From a virus (lineage: Duplodnaviria; Caudoviricetes), in IMG/VR virus record IMGVR_UViG_3300037418_001071, positions 440 through 64,439 of that record: a DNA stretch of 64,000 nucleotides. One strand, written 5' to 3'. The number at the start of each line of letters is the position of its first letter. Positions within the stretch are counted from its first letter, which is position 1. Position numbers and translations under genes: made by a program. The notes below the pieces were generated by a model. It was not told the origin of the DNA. It saw nothing but the letters and a program-made list of their open reading frames with translations, and searched no databases. Positions 27,445 through 35,693 of this stretch are shown here, in pieces.

Positions 27445-28058
27445 ATCGTGATCAACCTCAGGTGAGCGACGTAGCCGATGCTGGTGAAGTCGGGCGCATC
27501 GACAACGTAACGAATTCCTTCCTCGTCCTGCACGACATCGTCCTGTTTGAGCATCCCCTCGGGCAGCGGAATGAACGTGGTCCAGTGCGTGATTGCCTGC
27601 CCCATCGTGGTCGCATACTGCGCCTGCTTGATGTCTTCCCTTTTGAACTGCATGAAGACCGGGATGCCGGTGGCGTAGAACTCGAGAGTCTGGTTGCCAC
27701 CGTCGTACGAGCCGCGGCCGATGGAAATCACGTGATTCGTCTCCACGGCCTGGATCGGCAGGTTCGGCTGCATGTCGCCGATGTAGAACGTGCCCGCCGG
27801 CCCGATCAGGATGTCGCGCGGCTGCAGCACGCGGCCGTCGGCGTAGCAGTACCACGTCGGGGTTTGGTACTTGTTCGGGATGGCGAATTTCTTCTCGGCC
27901 GCAAACGCAACCGGGATGCGCGCGATCTTGTAGATGTCGTCCGTCACGGCGATCGGATCGTCGAAGCGGTAGACGTCGTACATGAAACCGACTTTTGCGG
28001 CCAGCTTCGCGTAGCCGGCGTACTGCAGGGCCTGCAGTCGGGCACCGGTCATGCTCAT
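27441..28058 (-). CDS. Head closure / neck protein (putative)
   Basis: ATGA overlap; position after the adaptor; LKQDDVVQDEEGIRYVV. Confidence 0.55.
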   Translation of the reverse strand: MSMTGARLQALQYAGYAKLAAKVGFMYDVYRFDDPIAVTDDIYKIARIPVAFAAEKKFAIPNKYQTPTWYCYADGRVLQPRDILIGPAGTFYIGDMQPNLPIQAVETNHVISIGRGSYDGGNQTLEFYATGIPVFMQFKREDIKQAQYATTMGQAITHWTTFIPLPEGMLKQDDVVQDEEGIRYVVDAPDFTSIGYVAHLRLITI

Positions 28059-28495
28059 TTCAGCCTCAATGTGTCGATTCCGTTGCCGCAGCCCGTATCG
28101 AGCGCACACGCGACTTCAACGGCCTTGCGGGCGGTGCGGCCAAGGTACATGACGGCCAGCGCGTGATCCCGGCCGCTGCCCATGGCGAAGAACTTGTCTT
28201 CGATCGTGATCGGATGCGGCATCGCCTCGTAGATCGTAATGCGAGGCCCCGGCGAAATGACCAGCAATCGGGCGCGGTGGCATCCATCATCACCACGGTT
28301 GTCCGGAAACTGTTCGGGTATCGCGCCCGCGAGAAACCATGCAATCAGCGCGCGGCCCGCGTCGGAATCGCCGGATGTTCCGACAAGTTCACCGGTCGGT
28401 GCGCGAGCTATCTTCGTCACGGTCGCAGGGTAGCCGGAGCATGTCGCCCGCTTGTCGGCTGCCAGCGTCACGCCGTCCCACGCCACGCAAGTCAT
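28055..28495 (-). CDS. Ntn-hydrolase (proteasome beta/HslV-like) protease
   Basis: M-T-C-V-A-W-D-G..LAADK (Thr2 nucleophile after Met removal); TK; GSGRDHALAVM; AVEVACALD..CG. Confidence 0.75.
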   Translation of the reverse strand: MTCVAWDGVTLAADKRATCSGYPATVTKIARAPTGELVGTSGDSDAGRALIAWFLAGAIPEQFPDNRGDDGCHRARLLVISPGPRITIYEAMPHPITIEDKFFAMGSGRDHALAVMYLGRTARKAVEVACALDTGCGNGIDTLRLK

Positions 28496-29858: not shown

Positions 29859-30275
29859 TCAGTCCTTGGCGATGAAGGCCACGAAGTTGATGCCGCTGGC
29901 GATCGTGCCGGCCACTTCCGTGTAGATGCGCACGTAGCGGTAAAGGGTGCCGTTCTGCTCGTTGCGGAACGGGACCACGAAGCGGCCGGTACCGGTATCG
30001 GCATCGGCCGGCGCGGTGGCGTTGCCCAGTTCGATCTGGGCCAGGGTCACGGAACCGGACGACATGGCGGCCACGTTGGAGCCTTCCAGGCAGACGAGGT
30101 AAATTTCGTCGTTGGAGGCCACTTCGACGGCCGAGACGTCCAGCACCAGATAGCCATCGACCAGGCCGGCGCCCAGATCGAGGATCGTCGACTCGGTGGT
30201 AGTGGATGCCACCAGACCCGCCGCTTTCAGCAGCAGCGCGTTGTCGTAGGTGAATTGCGAGTACAGATTTGCCAT
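29859..30275 (-). CDS. Capsid cement/decoration protein (Bbp16-like)
   Basis: DNALLLKAAGLVAST..ILDLG...YRYVRIY; follows the major capsid gene. Confidence 0.6.
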   Translation of the reverse strand: MANLYSQFTYDNALLLKAAGLVASTTTESTILDLGAGLVDGYLVLDVSAVEVASNDEIYLVCLEGSNVAAMSSGSVTLAQIELGNATAPADADTGTGRFVVPFRNEQNGTLYRYVRIYTEVAGTIASGINFVAFIAKD

Positions 30276-30298: not shown

Positions 30299-31336
30299 TT
30301 AGGCGACGACGGCGGCGTCAGCGATGGACCACAGACGCGTCACCGCACGGCCATTGAAAACGCCGAAGCCGTTGTACCATTCCACACGGGTACGGAAGAC
30401 CGGCGCGGATTGCAGCTCACCCAAATCACGCACGTCGACGCCCCCGTTTTGCAGGCCCAGAACGCCGTCGTTGCCGAAGCTCAGAACGTAGATCGAGGTG
30501 CCGGTTGCAGTGCCCGAGGTGCAGGCTTCCGTGAACGGCAGAATCTGGGCGCCGGCGTTGTCCAGATCGACGGTCAGGATTGGCAGGCCGTTGTACATCT
30601 CGACCGGCTTGCCGAAGCCGTCCACGCCCATCGTGATGAAGCCGCCGACGGTGGTGGAGCGCGACGCCTGGGTAATGCGGCGCTTCATCGCCTTGCTCAT
30701 CAGCAGATGCGTCGGGTTGAGGGTCTGGTCGATTGCCTCGTCCAGCTTGGACAGCGACAGCGCGGAGCCGTTTGCGGTCGAACCAGCAGCGACCAGCTGG
30801 TTGCCGGTGACGCGCACCTGCAGGCCGTCGAACTCGCGCGGGTCGGTGGCGGTGTCGCCCTTGATGAATTTCTTGGTCCAGGCAAGCGACAGCGCGCGAA
30901 TTTTCATCGCCTCGTGCACGGCGCGCTGATTTGCGCCCATGGTGTCGATGATGAATTTATCGACGTCCAGGTCGCCGCCGGCGATCACCAGCGATTCGGT
31001 GAGCGGGTTCAGGATGCCGGTCGACGGCGTGTACGCTTCATTCACGCCACGAAAGCCGACACCAGGCAGGGAGTCCTCGCGGTTGTACTTCAGCGCATTG
31101 CCAGCGATCGTCTCGAACGGCAGGGTTTGCAGGATCGCGGATGAGCCGGCATACAGTTCGATGATTGCCTGGCGCAGCACGTCGCCGGTTTCCAGCTTGG
31201 CTGCTTCGACCAGGGTCAAGGCGCCGGCGATCATCCCTTGCCGCGCCATGTAATTCGTCAGCGCGACATACAGCGGGTCGAACACCCAGGCGAACGCCGC
31301 CACGAAGACGGCTTGGACAAGCTTCAGGAGTTTCAT
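30299..31336 (-). CDS. Major capsid protein with N-terminal leader
   Basis: ALTLVEAAKL; LPFETIAGNALKYNRE; ESLVIAGGDLDVDKFI; EFDGLQVRV; RTRVEWY. Confidence 0.9.
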   Translation of the reverse strand: MKLLKLVQAVFVAAFAWVFDPLYVALTNYMARQGMIAGALTLVEAAKLETGDVLRQAIIELYAGSSAILQTLPFETIAGNALKYNREDSLPGVGFRGVNEAYTPSTGILNPLTESLVIAGGDLDVDKFIIDTMGANQRAVHEAMKIRALSLAWTKKFIKGDTATDPREFDGLQVRVTGNQLVAAGSTANGSALSLSKLDEAIDQTLNPTHLLMSKAMKRRITQASRSTTVGGFITMGVDGFGKPVEMYNGLPILTVDLDNAGAQILPFTEACTSGTATGTSIYVLSFGNDGVLGLQNGGVDVRDLGELQSAPVFRTRVEWYNGFGVFNGRAVTRLWSIADAAVVA

Positions 31337-31347
31337 GATTGATACCT

Positions 31348-32178
31348 TCACTTTTTTGCCGACCTTGCCGCAGTCATGCGCTCGGTTGGCGGGAGATGAG
31401 ATAGGTCTTTGGCGCCCATGGAGCCTTGACCACCGCCCCCACCGCCCGAGCTGCTTGCCGGGAACCAGTGGGGCTTTGTTTTTTTCATGCCTTCAAGCCA
31501 TTCAGCCGGGCCGAACGGTGTCTTGCCGTCCTTGCCCATCACAGGTCGGCCGTCGCTACCCAATTGCACGGCATTTCCTTCGGCGTCGAGCTTGAAAATC
31601 TGACGGCCCAACAGCAGGGCGTCTTCAACCGCATATTTATGCAACTCACCGGCGGCAGACCGAATCGCATTGTCGAGAACGCTCTGGATATACGCATCAG
31701 CGCGCTTATTTGCAGCCTCGGTATTGGCACGCTCGGCTTCAACCTGGCGCTCCAAATCCGCGCGCTGTCGCTCCATCCGCTTCTCGACGACCTCCGAAAT
31801 CTTGCCGGCAGCGATCAGCTTCAGTTCTTCGTCATTGTCAAACCGCGACATGATTTCTTTAACCTTGACCGGATCGATGCCCTCGTACTGCTTCTCGATT
31901 TCCTTGCGCCTCTTCTCCGCATCACGCGCAGCTTGGCGTTCGGATTCGAGTGCCGATTTCAGGCCTTTCGTGTCTTCCAGGCCGATGACGTCAAGGTGGA
32001 ACTTCCCGTCCCTCTCGACATAGAGCGCCCGCTGAGGCTCGGGAACCGAGTCCAGCGAATCCGCGACCAGCGGCACTGCTGCCAGGATCAGGCCACTGCG
32101 CGCCATGTGGCTAAACAGGCGTTTGTGAACGAGATCCAGGAGACTGCGAACAAAGGTTTTTGCCTTGGTGATTTGCAT
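31348..32178 (-). CDS. Scaffolding protein with N-terminal leader
   Basis: RBS GAGGGA before MQITK; DSLDSVPE..ALYVERDGKFHLDV; coiled coil; PHWFPASSSGGG. Confidence 0.8.
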   Translation of the reverse strand: MQITKAKTFVRSLLDLVHKRLFSHMARSGLILAAVPLVADSLDSVPEPQRALYVERDGKFHLDVIGLEDTKGLKSALESERQAARDAEKRRKEIEKQYEGIDPVKVKEIMSRFDNDEELKLIAAGKISEVVEKRMERQRADLERQVEAERANTEAANKRADAYIQSVLDNAIRSAAGELHKYAVEDALLLGRQIFKLDAEGNAVQLGSDGRPVMGKDGKTPFGPAEWLEGMKKTKPHWFPASSSGGGGGGQGSMGAKDLSHLPPTERMTAARSAKK

Positions 32179-32217
32179 TGCGATATCCCTCTCGGATATT
32201 TGTGTTACGGGCATCAC

Positions 32218-32300: not shown

Positions 32301-33761
32301 CTAACTTGCGGCGCTCGGTACAGACGCCGATGGATCGGCCGCGACCGGCGCACCGCTTTTCATCTTGGCCTGCTCGCTTTCCGGCGTCGCCTCGATCGAA
32401 ATCACTTCACCCTGCTTCAGATTGCTGAACAGGGTGTCGTAGCTATAGGCGCCCTTTTGCCAGCCCATGATCAATGCGGTCAGCTTTTCCGCGTCCATCT
32501 GCGTCGGCATGAATTCACGGTTCAGGCTGAATTTGACACCGCCACTCATGCCAGCCCACTCGCTGAACGTCTGCAGTGCCTGCGCGAGCCCCATCGAGAT
32601 CGCTTGTGCGGCACTCGCCAATGTCGCCTGTTCGCCACTTCGATGGATGCCCGCGGCATCTGCGGACTCGACGCCTTTTTTCTGAACCTCCAGCATGCGC
32701 GCGCCGAGAATTGCCATCATCAGCTCTTTGCGCTCGCACAGGTCTTTCAGCGTTCCAAGGCCCTGGCCGGTGAATTCCAGATATGCCGCCTTGGCGAGCG
32801 GATCGGTGAATACCCATGCGGTCGTGCTGCCGATGTAAAGCTTGTCCGGCGCTTCGCCATCGTTGTTTGGCGGCGAATATCCGGACACGACAGGCGTCGG
32901 CAGTCCCGTGAAATGCGCGCCATGCTCCCAGTCGGCCATCGTCAGGTAATGCGACAGGTTGATGTCAACCAGGTCGATCAGCGGCGGCTCGTCCACATCT
33001 GGCGTGGTGTCGTCCACGCCGATGAAGTAAAACGGGATGAATGCCAGCGGATCGCCGTTCATCTGCGGAATGGAGTCGACTCCGATCTGGATCGGGTTGC
33101 CTCTTTCGTCCAGCTTGAACAGGCGAATCCGATAGACCGTTCGGACACTCTCCCCGGATGCCACGTCGACCAAGTCGAGAACGCGATACCGGTCTTCCGG
33201 CTTCCCGTCGGTGAATTCATCAACCTGCTCGGAATGCACTTCCTTCAGCACGACCTGCGACAGCACGTACTTGTTGTTCACGCGCCGGCAGCGCCAGTTG
33301 ATGATCGACTCTGCCTTATAAATGTTCATCGACGGCCGCAGATTCAGCGCCAGCACATCGGCCTCGGTCATGGTCTCGGTATCTACGACCGGATAGTCGA
33401 CAAACACGCCGACCCGGCCAACGACCATGCATTCTTCAGCGATCTGTTGCGCGAATATCTGGAACGGCACGCCCGACATGGTCACATCGCTGATGTGATC
33501 TTCCAGGCCGACCGGAACTTCCAGATCGGGCGACTTGCGAAACAGCATGCCGAGCAGACCGGCAATCGTGCGCCAGGTCGCGTTGTAGAAAGTGGCGCGT
33601 TTTACATACGCGGCGTAATCCTCCTGGGTCTGATCCTTCAGCTTGGGAAGGTAGGCCTCGCCGGCCGCATGGATACTGTCCTGGCCGGCGGAGACATCGC
33701 GACAGCGCTGCCACTTGGGCGCCATTGCGACGTAGTCTTTGTGCTTGTCGTTCAGAGCCAT
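32301..33761 (-). CDS. Portal protein (DUF4055-like)
   Basis: YLPKL..Y.AYVKRATFYNAT.RT; PPLIDLVDINLSHY..AD.EHGAHFTGLP. Confidence 0.9.
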   Translation of the reverse strand: MALNDKHKDYVAMAPKWQRCRDVSAGQDSIHAAGEAYLPKLKDQTQEDYAAYVKRATFYNATWRTIAGLLGMLFRKSPDLEVPVGLEDHISDVTMSGVPFQIFAQQIAEECMVVGRVGVFVDYPVVDTETMTEADVLALNLRPSMNIYKAESIINWRCRRVNNKYVLSQVVLKEVHSEQVDEFTDGKPEDRYRVLDLVDVASGESVRTVYRIRLFKLDERGNPIQIGVDSIPQMNGDPLAFIPFYFIGVDDTTPDVDEPPLIDLVDINLSHYLTMADWEHGAHFTGLPTPVVSGYSPPNNDGEAPDKLYIGSTTAWVFTDPLAKAAYLEFTGQGLGTLKDLCERKELMMAILGARMLEVQKKGVESADAAGIHRSGEQATLASAAQAISMGLAQALQTFSEWAGMSGGVKFSLNREFMPTQMDAEKLTALIMGWQKGAYSYDTLFSNLKQGEVISIEATPESEQAKMKSGAPVAADPSASVPSAAS

Positions 33762-35017
33762 CAGGCACCGCCAATTTTGATTCGCTGCATGTTTCTTCCT
33801 TGGATCGGCCAGCGATTCACGATGAAATAACCGGACGCATCCAACACGTGATCCAGGCCGCCACTCTTGTCGGGCTCGCCGTTCTTGTCGTACGCCTGCT
33901 TTTCCAGCGATTCCACCAGGTGCGGGCAGATATCGACGTTCACGCGAAAGCGCCGCACACCTTCGCTATGAATCATGCGGTTGTAGCTCAGCACCCGGTC
34001 CTTCACCGCCGGATTACTGCTGTTGACGCACACCTGGAACCCGGCCTGCCTCAGGATCGCGAGATCCGATTCGCTCGCGTTGTTGCTCTTGCGCGAATTA
34101 CCCGATGCGTCCGGATACACCATCACGCTGTGGCCGCACTCCTTATACCGGGCGCGCAACAGCGCAGCCATCGCCGGTGTATCCAGGATGTCGACGTGCT
34201 CCATCACAGCGTGCGGATCGCCATCGCGCAGCACGAACAGCACTGCGGCCATCCTGCCAACGTTGAAGTCAAGGCCAACGTGAATCGTCTCGCCTTCGCG
34301 GATGGTCTCAGTGGAGGCGTTCAGGTGACGATCGAACTCCGGGTAGACGCTGCCGGAAGTCAGGTTCGTGAATTCGCCGTCGAGGTAAGCCGACAGTAGA
34401 TTGCTTGGATACGAGGCCTTCAGGCTGTCGATGTACCCAGACGGCAGGTTGCGCTCGTTGCTATAGGTGCTCGCCTTGATCAAGCGGTATCCGGCCGCGG
34501 GCTTCTTCTTCCAGCGGTCGTAGACAAAGCGAAATCCCTCCGGAGTCGTCGCCACTCCAACGGTATTCAACGCGCCGTCCGGCTTCTTCTGTCGGTTCCG
34601 GCTGATGATCTTGTTCCATACCTCTTGCGCCTGATTGGGCTTGAGCGTATCCAGCTCGTCCACCAGGCTATCGGCCACCTCATAGCCGACGATGCGCTCC
34701 GGCGTGTCCATCGTGCGAAAGATGATGTCGCCGGCGTTCTCTAACTCGATTACCGCGTTCGACTTGTTCAATCGATACGGCACCTTGTGCTCTTCCAGCA
34801 TCTCCACGAAGCGCGGAAAGCCAATGTTGCGCACCAGGTCAAACGTCGGCAGGTAATACGCGATGTTCTGGCCTGGATAGGCGAGTTTCTTCGTCAGAGC
34901 ACGCGCAACCGCTGCATGAGTCTTGCCACTGCCGAATCCAGCCACGAAAGCCGGGAACTGGTCGAGGCAGGTGACGAACTCGAACTGCGGGTCACTCAGT
35001 CGGATCTGCGTCGTCAT
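33761..35017 (-). CDS. terL: Terminase large subunit
   Basis: Walker A AGFGSGKT; VDELD Walker B; GLDFNV; YPDASG; DHVLDASGY. Confidence 0.95.
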   Translation of the reverse strand: MTTQIRLSDPQFEFVTCLDQFPAFVAGFGSGKTHAAVARALTKKLAYPGQNIAYYLPTFDLVRNIGFPRFVEMLEEHKVPYRLNKSNAVIELENAGDIIFRTMDTPERIVGYEVADSLVDELDTLKPNQAQEVWNKIISRNRQKKPDGALNTVGVATTPEGFRFVYDRWKKKPAAGYRLIKASTYSNERNLPSGYIDSLKASYPSNLLSAYLDGEFTNLTSGSVYPEFDRHLNASTETIREGETIHVGLDFNVGRMAAVLFVLRDGDPHAVMEHVDILDTPAMAALLRARYKECGHSVMVYPDASGNSRKSNNASESDLAILRQAGFQVCVNSSNPAVKDRVLSYNRMIHSEGVRRFRVNVDICPHLVESLEKQAYDKNGEPDKSGGLDHVLDASGYFIVNRWPIQGRNMQRIKIGGA

Positions 35018-35693
35018 ACTTCATGATCTGAATGACTGGCGGCCCAAGCTGTAGCGGCGCACCATCCTTGCCGGTGAGTTCAGTCCGGTCCTTGAACATG
35101 CCTAGGTGGCGCGCGACCTTCTCCAGCGCCGCCATCTGGTCGTGCATCTTGACCTCGAGACCATCCTTACCGAGCTTCACGCCGGCGTACATCAGCCTGG
35201 CGCCACCCTTCAGGTTGCGCGTGTCCTGCACGTGCATCGAGCCCTTGCCCTCGCCCTTGCATTCAGGGCACTCAGGATTCGCGGCCTTGAGCCTGTCGAA
35301 ACCGAATCCACCTTCGCAGGTAGGCTCGGCGTTGCTCTTCTTCGCCGCCTCGATCTTGGCCACTTCGAACTCGGCCTCAGTCCACTGATAGAAGTGATCG
35401 ATGCCCCAGCAGTGCCGGCAGCAATTGCGGCGGTATTGGACCAAATCGTTCGCGTCAGCGGTGGCGATCTGCCACAAACGCTGTAGCACCATGTCCTGCG
35501 TGATCTCGGTGCGAGCCTCGCGTGCCTTCATGGCGTCTGTGATGGCGGCTGTGATCCTAGTTTTGCCTAGTAGCTCAGGCCCAATTTTCCCGGCATTGCG
35601 CTCGCTATACCCGGCGCGGATCGCTGCCTGGGTCGCGTTCAAGTCGATCAGATACTCGTCGACGAAGCGCTGCTGTTTGGGGGTGAGAGCCAT
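34992..35693 (-). CDS. terS: Terminase small subunit with Zn-finger insertion
   Basis: LTPKQQRFVDEYLIDLNATQAAIRAGYS; CCRHCWG...CPECKGEG; ALEKVARHLGMF. Confidence 0.9.
   Translation of the reverse strand: MALTPKQQRFVDEYLIDLNATQAAIRAGYSERNAGKIGPELLGKTRITAAITDAMKAREARTEITQDMVLQRLWQIATADANDLVQYRRNCCRHCWGIDHFYQWTEAEFEVAKIEAAKKSNAEPTCEGGFGFDRLKAANPECPECKGEGKGSMHVQDTRNLKGGARLMYAGVKLGKDGLEVKMHDQMAALEKVARHLGMFKDRTELTGKDGAPLQLGPPVIQIMKYDDADPTE

Follow-up and report, generated by a model that had tools for sequence, protein, structure and literature searches.

We analysed a 64,000-nucleotide window of DNA from a tailed phage (Caudoviricetes), which comprises bases 440-64439 of the 64,439-bp IMG/VR virus record IMGVR_UViG_3300037418_001071; coordinates given without a locus or record name are positions in this window. 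Two neighboring genes of this phage encode the major capsid protein and the head scaffolding protein, and each protein begins with an N-terminal leader that ends in a similar short sequence, referred to here as the junction box. Our data indicate that the leaders are translated and modular and that the junction box is conserved among relatives.

Leaders of the capsid and scaffold precursors

The two genes and their leaders are arranged as follows.

30299-31336, minus strand: major capsid protein precursor, 345 amino acids, epsilon15 gp7-like (PF20911, phrog_212, NF045672)
31223..31336, minus strand: capsid leader, codons 1-38, with a basic N-terminus, a hydrophobic helix and the junction box
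31223..31252, minus strand: capsid junction box, Y29-M-A-R-Q-G34-M-I-A-G38, with the putative cut after G38 and before A39
31348-32178, minus strand: head scaffolding protein precursor, 276 amino acids (phrog_206, E 1e-47 over residues 37-259)
32080..32178, minus strand: scaffold leader, codons 1-33, a cationic amphipathic helix followed by the box H24-M-A-R-S-G29-L-I-L-A33

The capsid protein belongs to the gp7-like family, matching PF20911 (GP7) with an E-value of 2e-9 and 37.1 bits (cut-off 27), NCBIfam NF045672 (MCP_gp7_epsi_15) with 257.7 bits over residues 41-337 (cut-off 75) and phrog_212 with an E-value of 4e-85. The scaffold is assigned to phrog_206 by its profile match together with its position directly upstream of the capsid gene, where 12 nt separate the end of the scaffold gene from the capsid ATG.

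An earlier note on this DNA had quoted both N-termini, and we found them as quoted, on the minus strand. Translation from the capsid ATG at 31336 runs through NYMARQGMIAG into ALTLVEAAKL, while translation from the scaffold ATG at 32178 runs through SHMARSGLILA into AVPLVADSLD, so that in both leaders the last residues read Y/H-M-A-R-x-G-(M/L)-I-x-x and the next residue is Ala. The BLOSUM62 score between the two 11-residue boxes is 28, a score against the capsid box that is reached by only 5 of the 528,653 11-mers in 3,895 open reading frames (ORFs) from 13 related phage records. Family profiles begin after the leaders in both proteins: position 4 of phrog_212 corresponds to capsid residue 38, position 1 of NF045672 to capsid residue 41, and position 6 of phrog_206 aligns with scaffold residue 37.

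We found that the two leaders are positively charged and either hydrophobic or amphipathic. The capsid leader has a net charge of +2 and a mean Kyte-Doolittle hydropathy of 1.92 over its most hydrophobic 18 residues, and the scaffold leader has a net charge of +5 and a hydrophobic moment of 0.52. AlphaFold2 predicts capsid residues 2-32 as one helix (predicted local distance difference test, pLDDT, ~75) and the box as non-helical; the capsid model, made from a shallow alignment, has a mean pLDDT of 54.8 and is poor outside the leader. Since the leaders are basic and hydrophobic or amphipathic, their association with a membrane is plausible. With regard to a possible Sec-type signal (basic, hydrophobic and AxA regions), a basic start and a hydrophobic stretch are present in the capsid leaders, and P22-type relatives appear to resemble full Sec signals. 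A prepilin-type leader ([K/R]-x-G↓hydrophobic, the arrow marking the cut) was considered and rejected, as the leaders are 25-50 amino acids long and have no Glu at +5.

Both upstream start codons are preceded by a Shine-Dalgarno sequence.

31345..31349, minus strand: capsid Shine-Dalgarno GAAGG, 8 nt before the ATG and overlapping the scaffold stop codon, -5.3 kcal/mol
32187..32193, minus strand: scaffold Shine-Dalgarno GAGAGGG, 8 nt before the ATG, -6.3 kcal/mol

The Met codons inside the two boxes, by comparison, have no Shine-Dalgarno pairing (+0.1 and +1.3 kcal/mol), which bears out the statement of the earlier note that good ribosome-binding sites are found only at the upstream ATGs. The capsid leader shows coding-type periodicity, with a GC content of 0.84 at third codon positions (GC3) versus 0.34 at second codon positions (GC2), and in both leaders the contrast between GC3 and GC2 is the same as in the remainder of the gene. 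Furthermore, many homologous capsid leaders contain no internal Met at all, and such extensions must therefore be translated.

Leaders and junction boxes among homologues

We compared the 120 best homologues of the capsid protein and 120 homologues of the scaffold. Most of the capsid homologues (80 of 120) are about 308 amino acids long and start M-ALTLVEAAKL, while the other 40 measure 332-357 amino acids and carry an N-terminal extension. Likewise, 67 of the 120 scaffold homologues start M-ALxLVVDxLD and 53 are leader-bearing. The note had placed the start of homologues right after the shared motif, and the leaderless forms of both proteins do start there. In related DNA loci the reading frame of leaderless capsid genes is interrupted by a stop only a few codons before the ATG, and these capsids are thus truly without a leader.

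All 40 distinct capsid leaders begin with basic residues and continue into a hydrophobic stretch, and in all 40 the Gly of the box is invariant and lies five residues before the mature Ala or Gly. It is followed by L/M/V/F, any residue, L (34 of 40) and any residue, and preceded by Y/F/H, M/L, any residue, R/K and Q. The scaffold leaders have the consensus Y-M-A-R-T/S-G-L/M-x-L-x-A, with the Gly kept in 53 of 53, and the flanking consensus common to the capsid and scaffold boxes is Y-M-A-R-x-G-L-x-L-x↓A. The motif is thus conserved in relatives, a point on which the note had staked its proposal.

Leaderless relatives mark the same junction at the DNA level. The mature capsids of the leaderless loci L017-L026 are 95-96% identical to that of this phage, and between this phage and L017 (96% identity) DNA homology begins exactly at the Ala39 codon. 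In L048, L052 and L068 the scaffold precursors (L048:4698-5741, L052:4702-5748 and L068:4562-5623) carry an extra conserved domain of about 85 residues before the box, which starts MKP-I/V-EFK and has no Pfam match. Because about 85 residues precede the box in these three relatives, the box is an internal site and not an artefact of start-codon choice.

A third head protein carries leaders of the same kind in some relatives. Its gene adjoins the capsid gene of this phage.

29859-30275, minus strand: 138-amino-acid head protein (phrog_427), without a leader here (it starts M-ANLYSQ)

Its homologues are leader-bearing in L005, L048, L052, L059, L061, L062 and L068, where the leader ends, for example, in GLVLS before LNLYSQ. 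The gene for the 138-amino-acid protein and the capsid gene travel together as a conserved pair. In all three protein families the start Met of the leaderless form falls at the residue just before the junction. Methionine aminopeptidase has a known specificity, on the basis of which removal of Met from the leaderless forms would expose the same N-terminus as cleavage of the leader.

By tblastn we found no leader-bearing capsid among cultured phages; the capsid genes of Bacillus phage PK2 and Acinetobacter phage qsb1 are leaderless, and an extra tblastn alignment that might have placed these two among the leader-bearing phages lies in intergenic or neighboring-gene DNA. The cultured isolate Janthinobacterium sp. 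PC23-8 harbors one leader-bearing prophage, L001.

Candidate leader peptidases

The late genes of this phage lie on the minus strand in the order small terminase, large terminase, portal, scaffold, capsid, 138-amino-acid head protein, and neck and tail genes. Further genes of this region are given here.

34992-35693, minus strand: small terminase
33761-35017, minus strand: large terminase
32301-33761, minus strand: portal (DUF4055, phrog_145)
28055-28495, minus strand: HslV/proteasome-beta-like Ntn (N-terminal nucleophile) hydrolase, among the neck genes (phrog_1040, E 9e-31)

The scaffold gene directly follows the portal gene, with no gene between them. Pfam and PHROG searches detected no S78, S49 or S80 prohead protease in the head module, which sets this phage apart from classical maturation and agrees with the report of the note that no canonical prohead protease lies between portal and capsid.

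A candidate emerged from relatives when the records of 7 phages with leaders were compared in full with those of 6 phages without. In four leader-bearing phages the small ORF immediately upstream of the scaffold gene encodes a protein of 130-180 amino acids, referred to here as mini-M48, with an N-terminal membrane helix, basic residues, an invariant HExxH motif and, further on, an invariant Q-E-x-E-A-D. Residues H60, E61, H64 and E92 are invariant in 56 sequences. Mini-M48 scores 22.3 bits against Pfam Peptidase_M48 (PF01435; cut-off 20.3), and its profile matches Ste24p (PDB 4il3) over both motifs with an E-value of 2e-8. The HExxH motif, the downstream Glu and the profile match place the mini-M48 of relatives in peptidase family M48. 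Its AlphaFold2 model has a pLDDT of 96 and comes closest in fold to ZMPSTE24, Ste24p, BepA and BlaR1, although the E-values are weak. Mini-M48 resembles M48 (Ste24/ZMPSTE24, HtpX, BepA) and M56 (BlaR1) enzymes in having an HExxH helix and a downstream helix that contains Glu. Ordinary M48 and M56 enzymes, however, have 290-480 amino acids and 2-7 membrane helices, while mini-M48 has only 130-180 amino acids and one membrane helix. By the positive-inside rule, basic residues flank a membrane helix on its cytoplasmic side. The basic residues that follow the membrane helix of mini-M48 would thus place its catalytic domain in the cytoplasm. Together with the character of the leaders, such a placement would fit an encounter of precursors and protease on the cytoplasmic side of the membrane.

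Mini-M48 matches no PHROG family, and it falls far below every NCBIfam HtpX cut-off, with only sub-threshold similarity. A tblastn search with two queries found no match among 50,697 GenBank phage records, while a profile search of 1.8 billion representative proteins returned about 95 clusters of full-length relatives of 120-190 amino acids. In L144 (5751-6137) and L148 (5509-5883) mini-M48 lies upstream of the terminase genes, beside a second small HExxH protein (VHEAVHVWQ).

Mini-M48 occurs with leaders. In a set of 95 loci selected by their capsids, plus this window, it was found only in leader-bearing loci (L003/L041, L005, L048, L052, L062 and L068). Counting dereplicated lineages with at least 2.5 kb of upstream sequence, we found it adjoining the scaffold gene on the upstream side in 6 of the 11 that bear leaders and in 0 of the 41 that do not. 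Fisher's test gave p = 4.5e-5 with L007 wrongly counted as leader-bearing, and p is estimated at about 2e-5 for the hand-corrected counts given here. In the reverse direction, among 29 IMG/VR loci selected through mini-M48, every locus with a visible downstream capsid gene shows an N-terminal leader on the capsid; each of these leaders begins with basic and hydrophobic residues and continues through an amphipathic spacer to a G-hydrophobic-x-hydrophobic-x box. These capsids belong to three Pfam families, namely PF20911 (GP7), PF11651 (P22 coat; L137, L140, L143) and PF20036 (Gp13-like; L141), and in L137 and L141, where the profile covers the N-terminus, the Pfam profile begins right after the leader.

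Some leaders on P22-coat-type capsids (L138, L140, L149, L151 and L158) look like a complete Sec signal, with MKK, a hydrophobic run and A-x-A, and about 30 more residues stand between this Sec-like signal and the Gly box, an arrangement that is odd for a cytoplasmic capsid protein.

This phage has no mini-M48; the best six-frame hmmsearch match in the window has an E-value of 0.36. The leader-bearing provirus record G003, which is 100% complete, lacks it as well. In M48-bearing leader phages the residue before the putative cut is mostly Gly, and in those without M48 it is G, C, H, T or F, a difference that could reflect a different enzyme in the latter. All-against-all clustering of the 13 records found no gene common only to leader-bearing genomes without M48, apart from antisense shadows of portal, scaffold and terminase genes. 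In the hosts of L001, L002, L004 and L015 we found no mini-M48, only ordinary M48 genes in open frames of 420-590 amino acids. G003 (the record of L042) encodes, at 31347-31985 on the minus strand, a 212-amino-acid protein with an HELYH motif, a possible alternative metallopeptidase.

Proposed leader processing and the mosaic head module

We hypothesize that the two proteins are made as precursors whose N-terminal leader can be detached. This leader would consist of a positively charged helix, hydrophobic in the capsid and amphipathic in the scaffold, and a box of the form [Y/F/H]-[M/L]-x-[R/K]-x-G-[L/M/V]-x-[L]-x, and it may serve as a common signal for targeting and processing. It would hold capsid and scaffold together in an unassembled state, probably on the inside of the cytoplasmic membrane, until an endopeptidase cuts four residues after the invariant Gly. 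The cut would leave a capsid that starts ALTLVEAAKL and a scaffold that starts AVPLVADSLD, with the same N-termini as leaderless relatives have. For about half of the leader-bearing relatives the best candidate for this peptidase is the phage-encoded, single-helix mini-M48 upstream of the scaffold gene. In this phage a host enzyme would make the cut, since the mini-M48 gene is absent, and it might belong to family M48, like HtpX or Ste24-like enzymes. Ordinary M48 proteases are encoded by the hosts of related prophages, which makes a host M48-type enzyme a reasonable candidate. We consider it likely that the shared leader is cleaved, and for the proposal as a whole, with a detachable shared leader, membrane targeting and an M48-type or host peptidase, we judge the balance to tip slightly in its favor.

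The earlier note had proposed a cleavable leader read by one protease. Much of this stands: the leader is real, it is shared by the two proteins, it ends where leaderless homologues begin, and the junction box is its most conserved part, as would be expected of a recognition site, so that one common protease is plausible. The part that did not stand is the link to the Ntn hydrolase, which is taken up below.

In the assembly of phages and herpesviruses, processing of head proteins at the N-terminus serves as a central point of control. In T4 (gp21), HK97 (gp4), lambda (C) and phiKZ/SPN3US (gp175/gp245), one protease acts during maturation on several head proteins (major capsid protein, scaffold and internal proteins) and trims their N-terminal propeptides at a short motif that they have in common, and these prohead proteases are soluble serine proteases (S78, S49, S80 and related) that are built into the prohead. 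The leaders described here resemble those systems in that a short motif is shared by the N-terminal leaders of several head proteins. They differ in that this phage has no such protease gene, relatives have as their candidate an M48 metalloprotease that crosses the membrane once, and the leaders look membrane-seeking. To our knowledge, N-terminal processing of head proteins is so far known only for soluble serine proteases within the prohead and for one borrowed host cysteine protease, in phage 80alpha. Our results could thus possibly represent a form of the known propeptide processing of head proteins that employs a new protease class.

The closest parallel is the staphylococcal phage 80alpha, in which the host protease Prp cuts capsid and scaffold at a motif common to their N-termini (PMC5744158). 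The 80alpha leaders have 13-14 residues and copy the N-terminus of the host ribosomal protein L27 (KLNLQ.F↓A), and they are cut at F↓A by this Firmicutes cysteine protease; motifs of this type are also found on other, non-homologous virion proteins of related phages (PMC5744158). As in 80alpha, the capsid and scaffold of one phage carry a common N-terminal motif running up to the mature N-terminus, and there is no phage prohead protease. The reliance of 80alpha on host Prp for both proteins shows that a phage can depend on a host enzyme for such a step. Unlike those of 80alpha, the leaders here have 25-50 residues and a hydrophobic or amphipathic helix, their box (Y-M-A-R-x-G-L-x-L-x↓A) does not copy the L27 N-terminus, the hosts are Proteobacteria, and the enzyme that co-occurs with them in relatives is a phage-encoded membrane zinc protease.

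Several observations weigh against leader processing as we propose it. The removal of either leader, and with it the exact cut site, is inferred at the level of sequence. The two leaders are not obligately paired, as L001 and L046 have a capsid leader and a leaderless scaffold, and within a phage the capsid and scaffold boxes are only slightly more alike than between phages (permutation p = 0.04). The residue before the putative cut varies (G, T, N, H, C, S and others), unlike what is usually seen at a strict protease site. Kinship among the six M48-positive lineages means that they are not fully independent, and the absence of mini-M48 here and in G003 means either that a host enzyme reads the motif or that the association reflects linkage within the head module. 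Some of these points are shared by the view that the leaders are never cleaved and stay in place as an N-terminal arm or helix that makes capsid-scaffold or membrane contacts during assembly. Along with the indirect case for cleavage and the lack of a dedicated peptidase in this phage and G003, that view can draw on the prediction of the leader as one long helix and on 80alpha, in which the N-terminal sequence of the scaffold is required for assembly whether or not it is cut (PMC5744158). A retained arm fits poorly with a leader whose most conserved part is the short non-helical box at the junction and not the helix, with leaderless orthologues of three protein families that begin exactly at this junction, and with the exclusive co-occurrence of leaders with a protease gene in relatives; in addition, each capsid would have to accommodate at least 415 hydrophobic helices. 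We therefore regard permanent retention of the leaders as unlikely, though worth keeping in mind.

Two further explanations carry still less weight. The leaders might be removed by the HslV/proteasome-beta-like Ntn protease of the phage itself (28055-28495), which is the sole protease-like gene of the morphogenesis region apart from a tail NlpC/P60 domain, and the record offers no other phage-encoded candidate. The protein starts M-TCVAWDG and thus has the N-terminal Thr, and manual alignment to HslV also places residues at the catalytic Asp and Lys positions. The note had looked to co-occurrence of the leader with this gene, and the distribution of phrog_1040 does not bear out that expectation: the family is missing from the leader-bearing records G003 and G005 (both 100% complete) and G002 (90% complete), and it is present in the leaderless records G012, G013, G015 and G021, among them phages with a mature capsid 95% identical to that of this phage. 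It also occurs in L048. Since its distribution is independent of the leaders, and its gene lies among the neck genes and does not adjoin the scaffold or capsid gene, we rejected it as the leader peptidase and consider such a role improbable. The other explanation is that translation starts at the internal Met of the MAR motif and that the upstream part is a mere extension of the ORF. Both motifs do begin with Met, which is the commonest residue there among homologues. Many homologues, however, carry Leu, Phe or another residue at this position and have no other start codon, the upstream part shows both protein-level conservation and coding GC3 periodicity, the internal Met codons have no Shine-Dalgarno, and the box is internal in L048, L052 and L068. 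We rejected the internal Met as the true start, and an artefact of this kind is hardly credible.

Returning to the leader itself, its presence in many uncultured relatives, about half of which have a mini-M48 gene beside the scaffold gene, suggests control of capsid assembly of a kind that has not been described. The same leader is found on up to three head proteins and on capsids of three unrelated sequence families, and mini-M48 co-occurs only with leader-bearing loci and is absent from cultured-phage databases. In the literature searched we found no description of the pairing of leader and mini-M48, and nothing relevant on head maturation by HslV or M48 enzymes. A broader generalization, which we put forward tentatively and hold with some doubt, is that a family of uncultured phages with capsids of at least three families makes capsid, scaffold and decoration-type proteins as membrane-directed precursors with a signal-like leader, which a dedicated single-pass M48 protease, or the M48 enzyme of the host in phages like this one, would release at G-x-x-x-x↓, so that assembly would be started and timed at the membrane. 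If this were true, it would add a checkpoint to capsid assembly and a new class of head-maturation protease. If the leader is cleaved as we propose, capsid assembly would gain a new protease class and a membrane step. The invariant Gly five residues before the mature start would then provide a rule for correcting the annotated starts of metagenomic capsid and scaffold genes, and the portable pair of leader and protease might serve as a tool. The idea is directly testable because the L001 prophage sits in a cultured Janthinobacterium strain.

Mosaicism is strong in the head module. The mature capsids of L017 and L021-L026 are 95-96% identical to that of this phage, while their scaffolds are only 34% and their portals only 26-27% identical. 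In L018-L020 a matching scaffold was not found, and the portal is 22% identical to that of this phage. One recombination boundary in the mosaic head module falls exactly at the junction between leader and mature protein.

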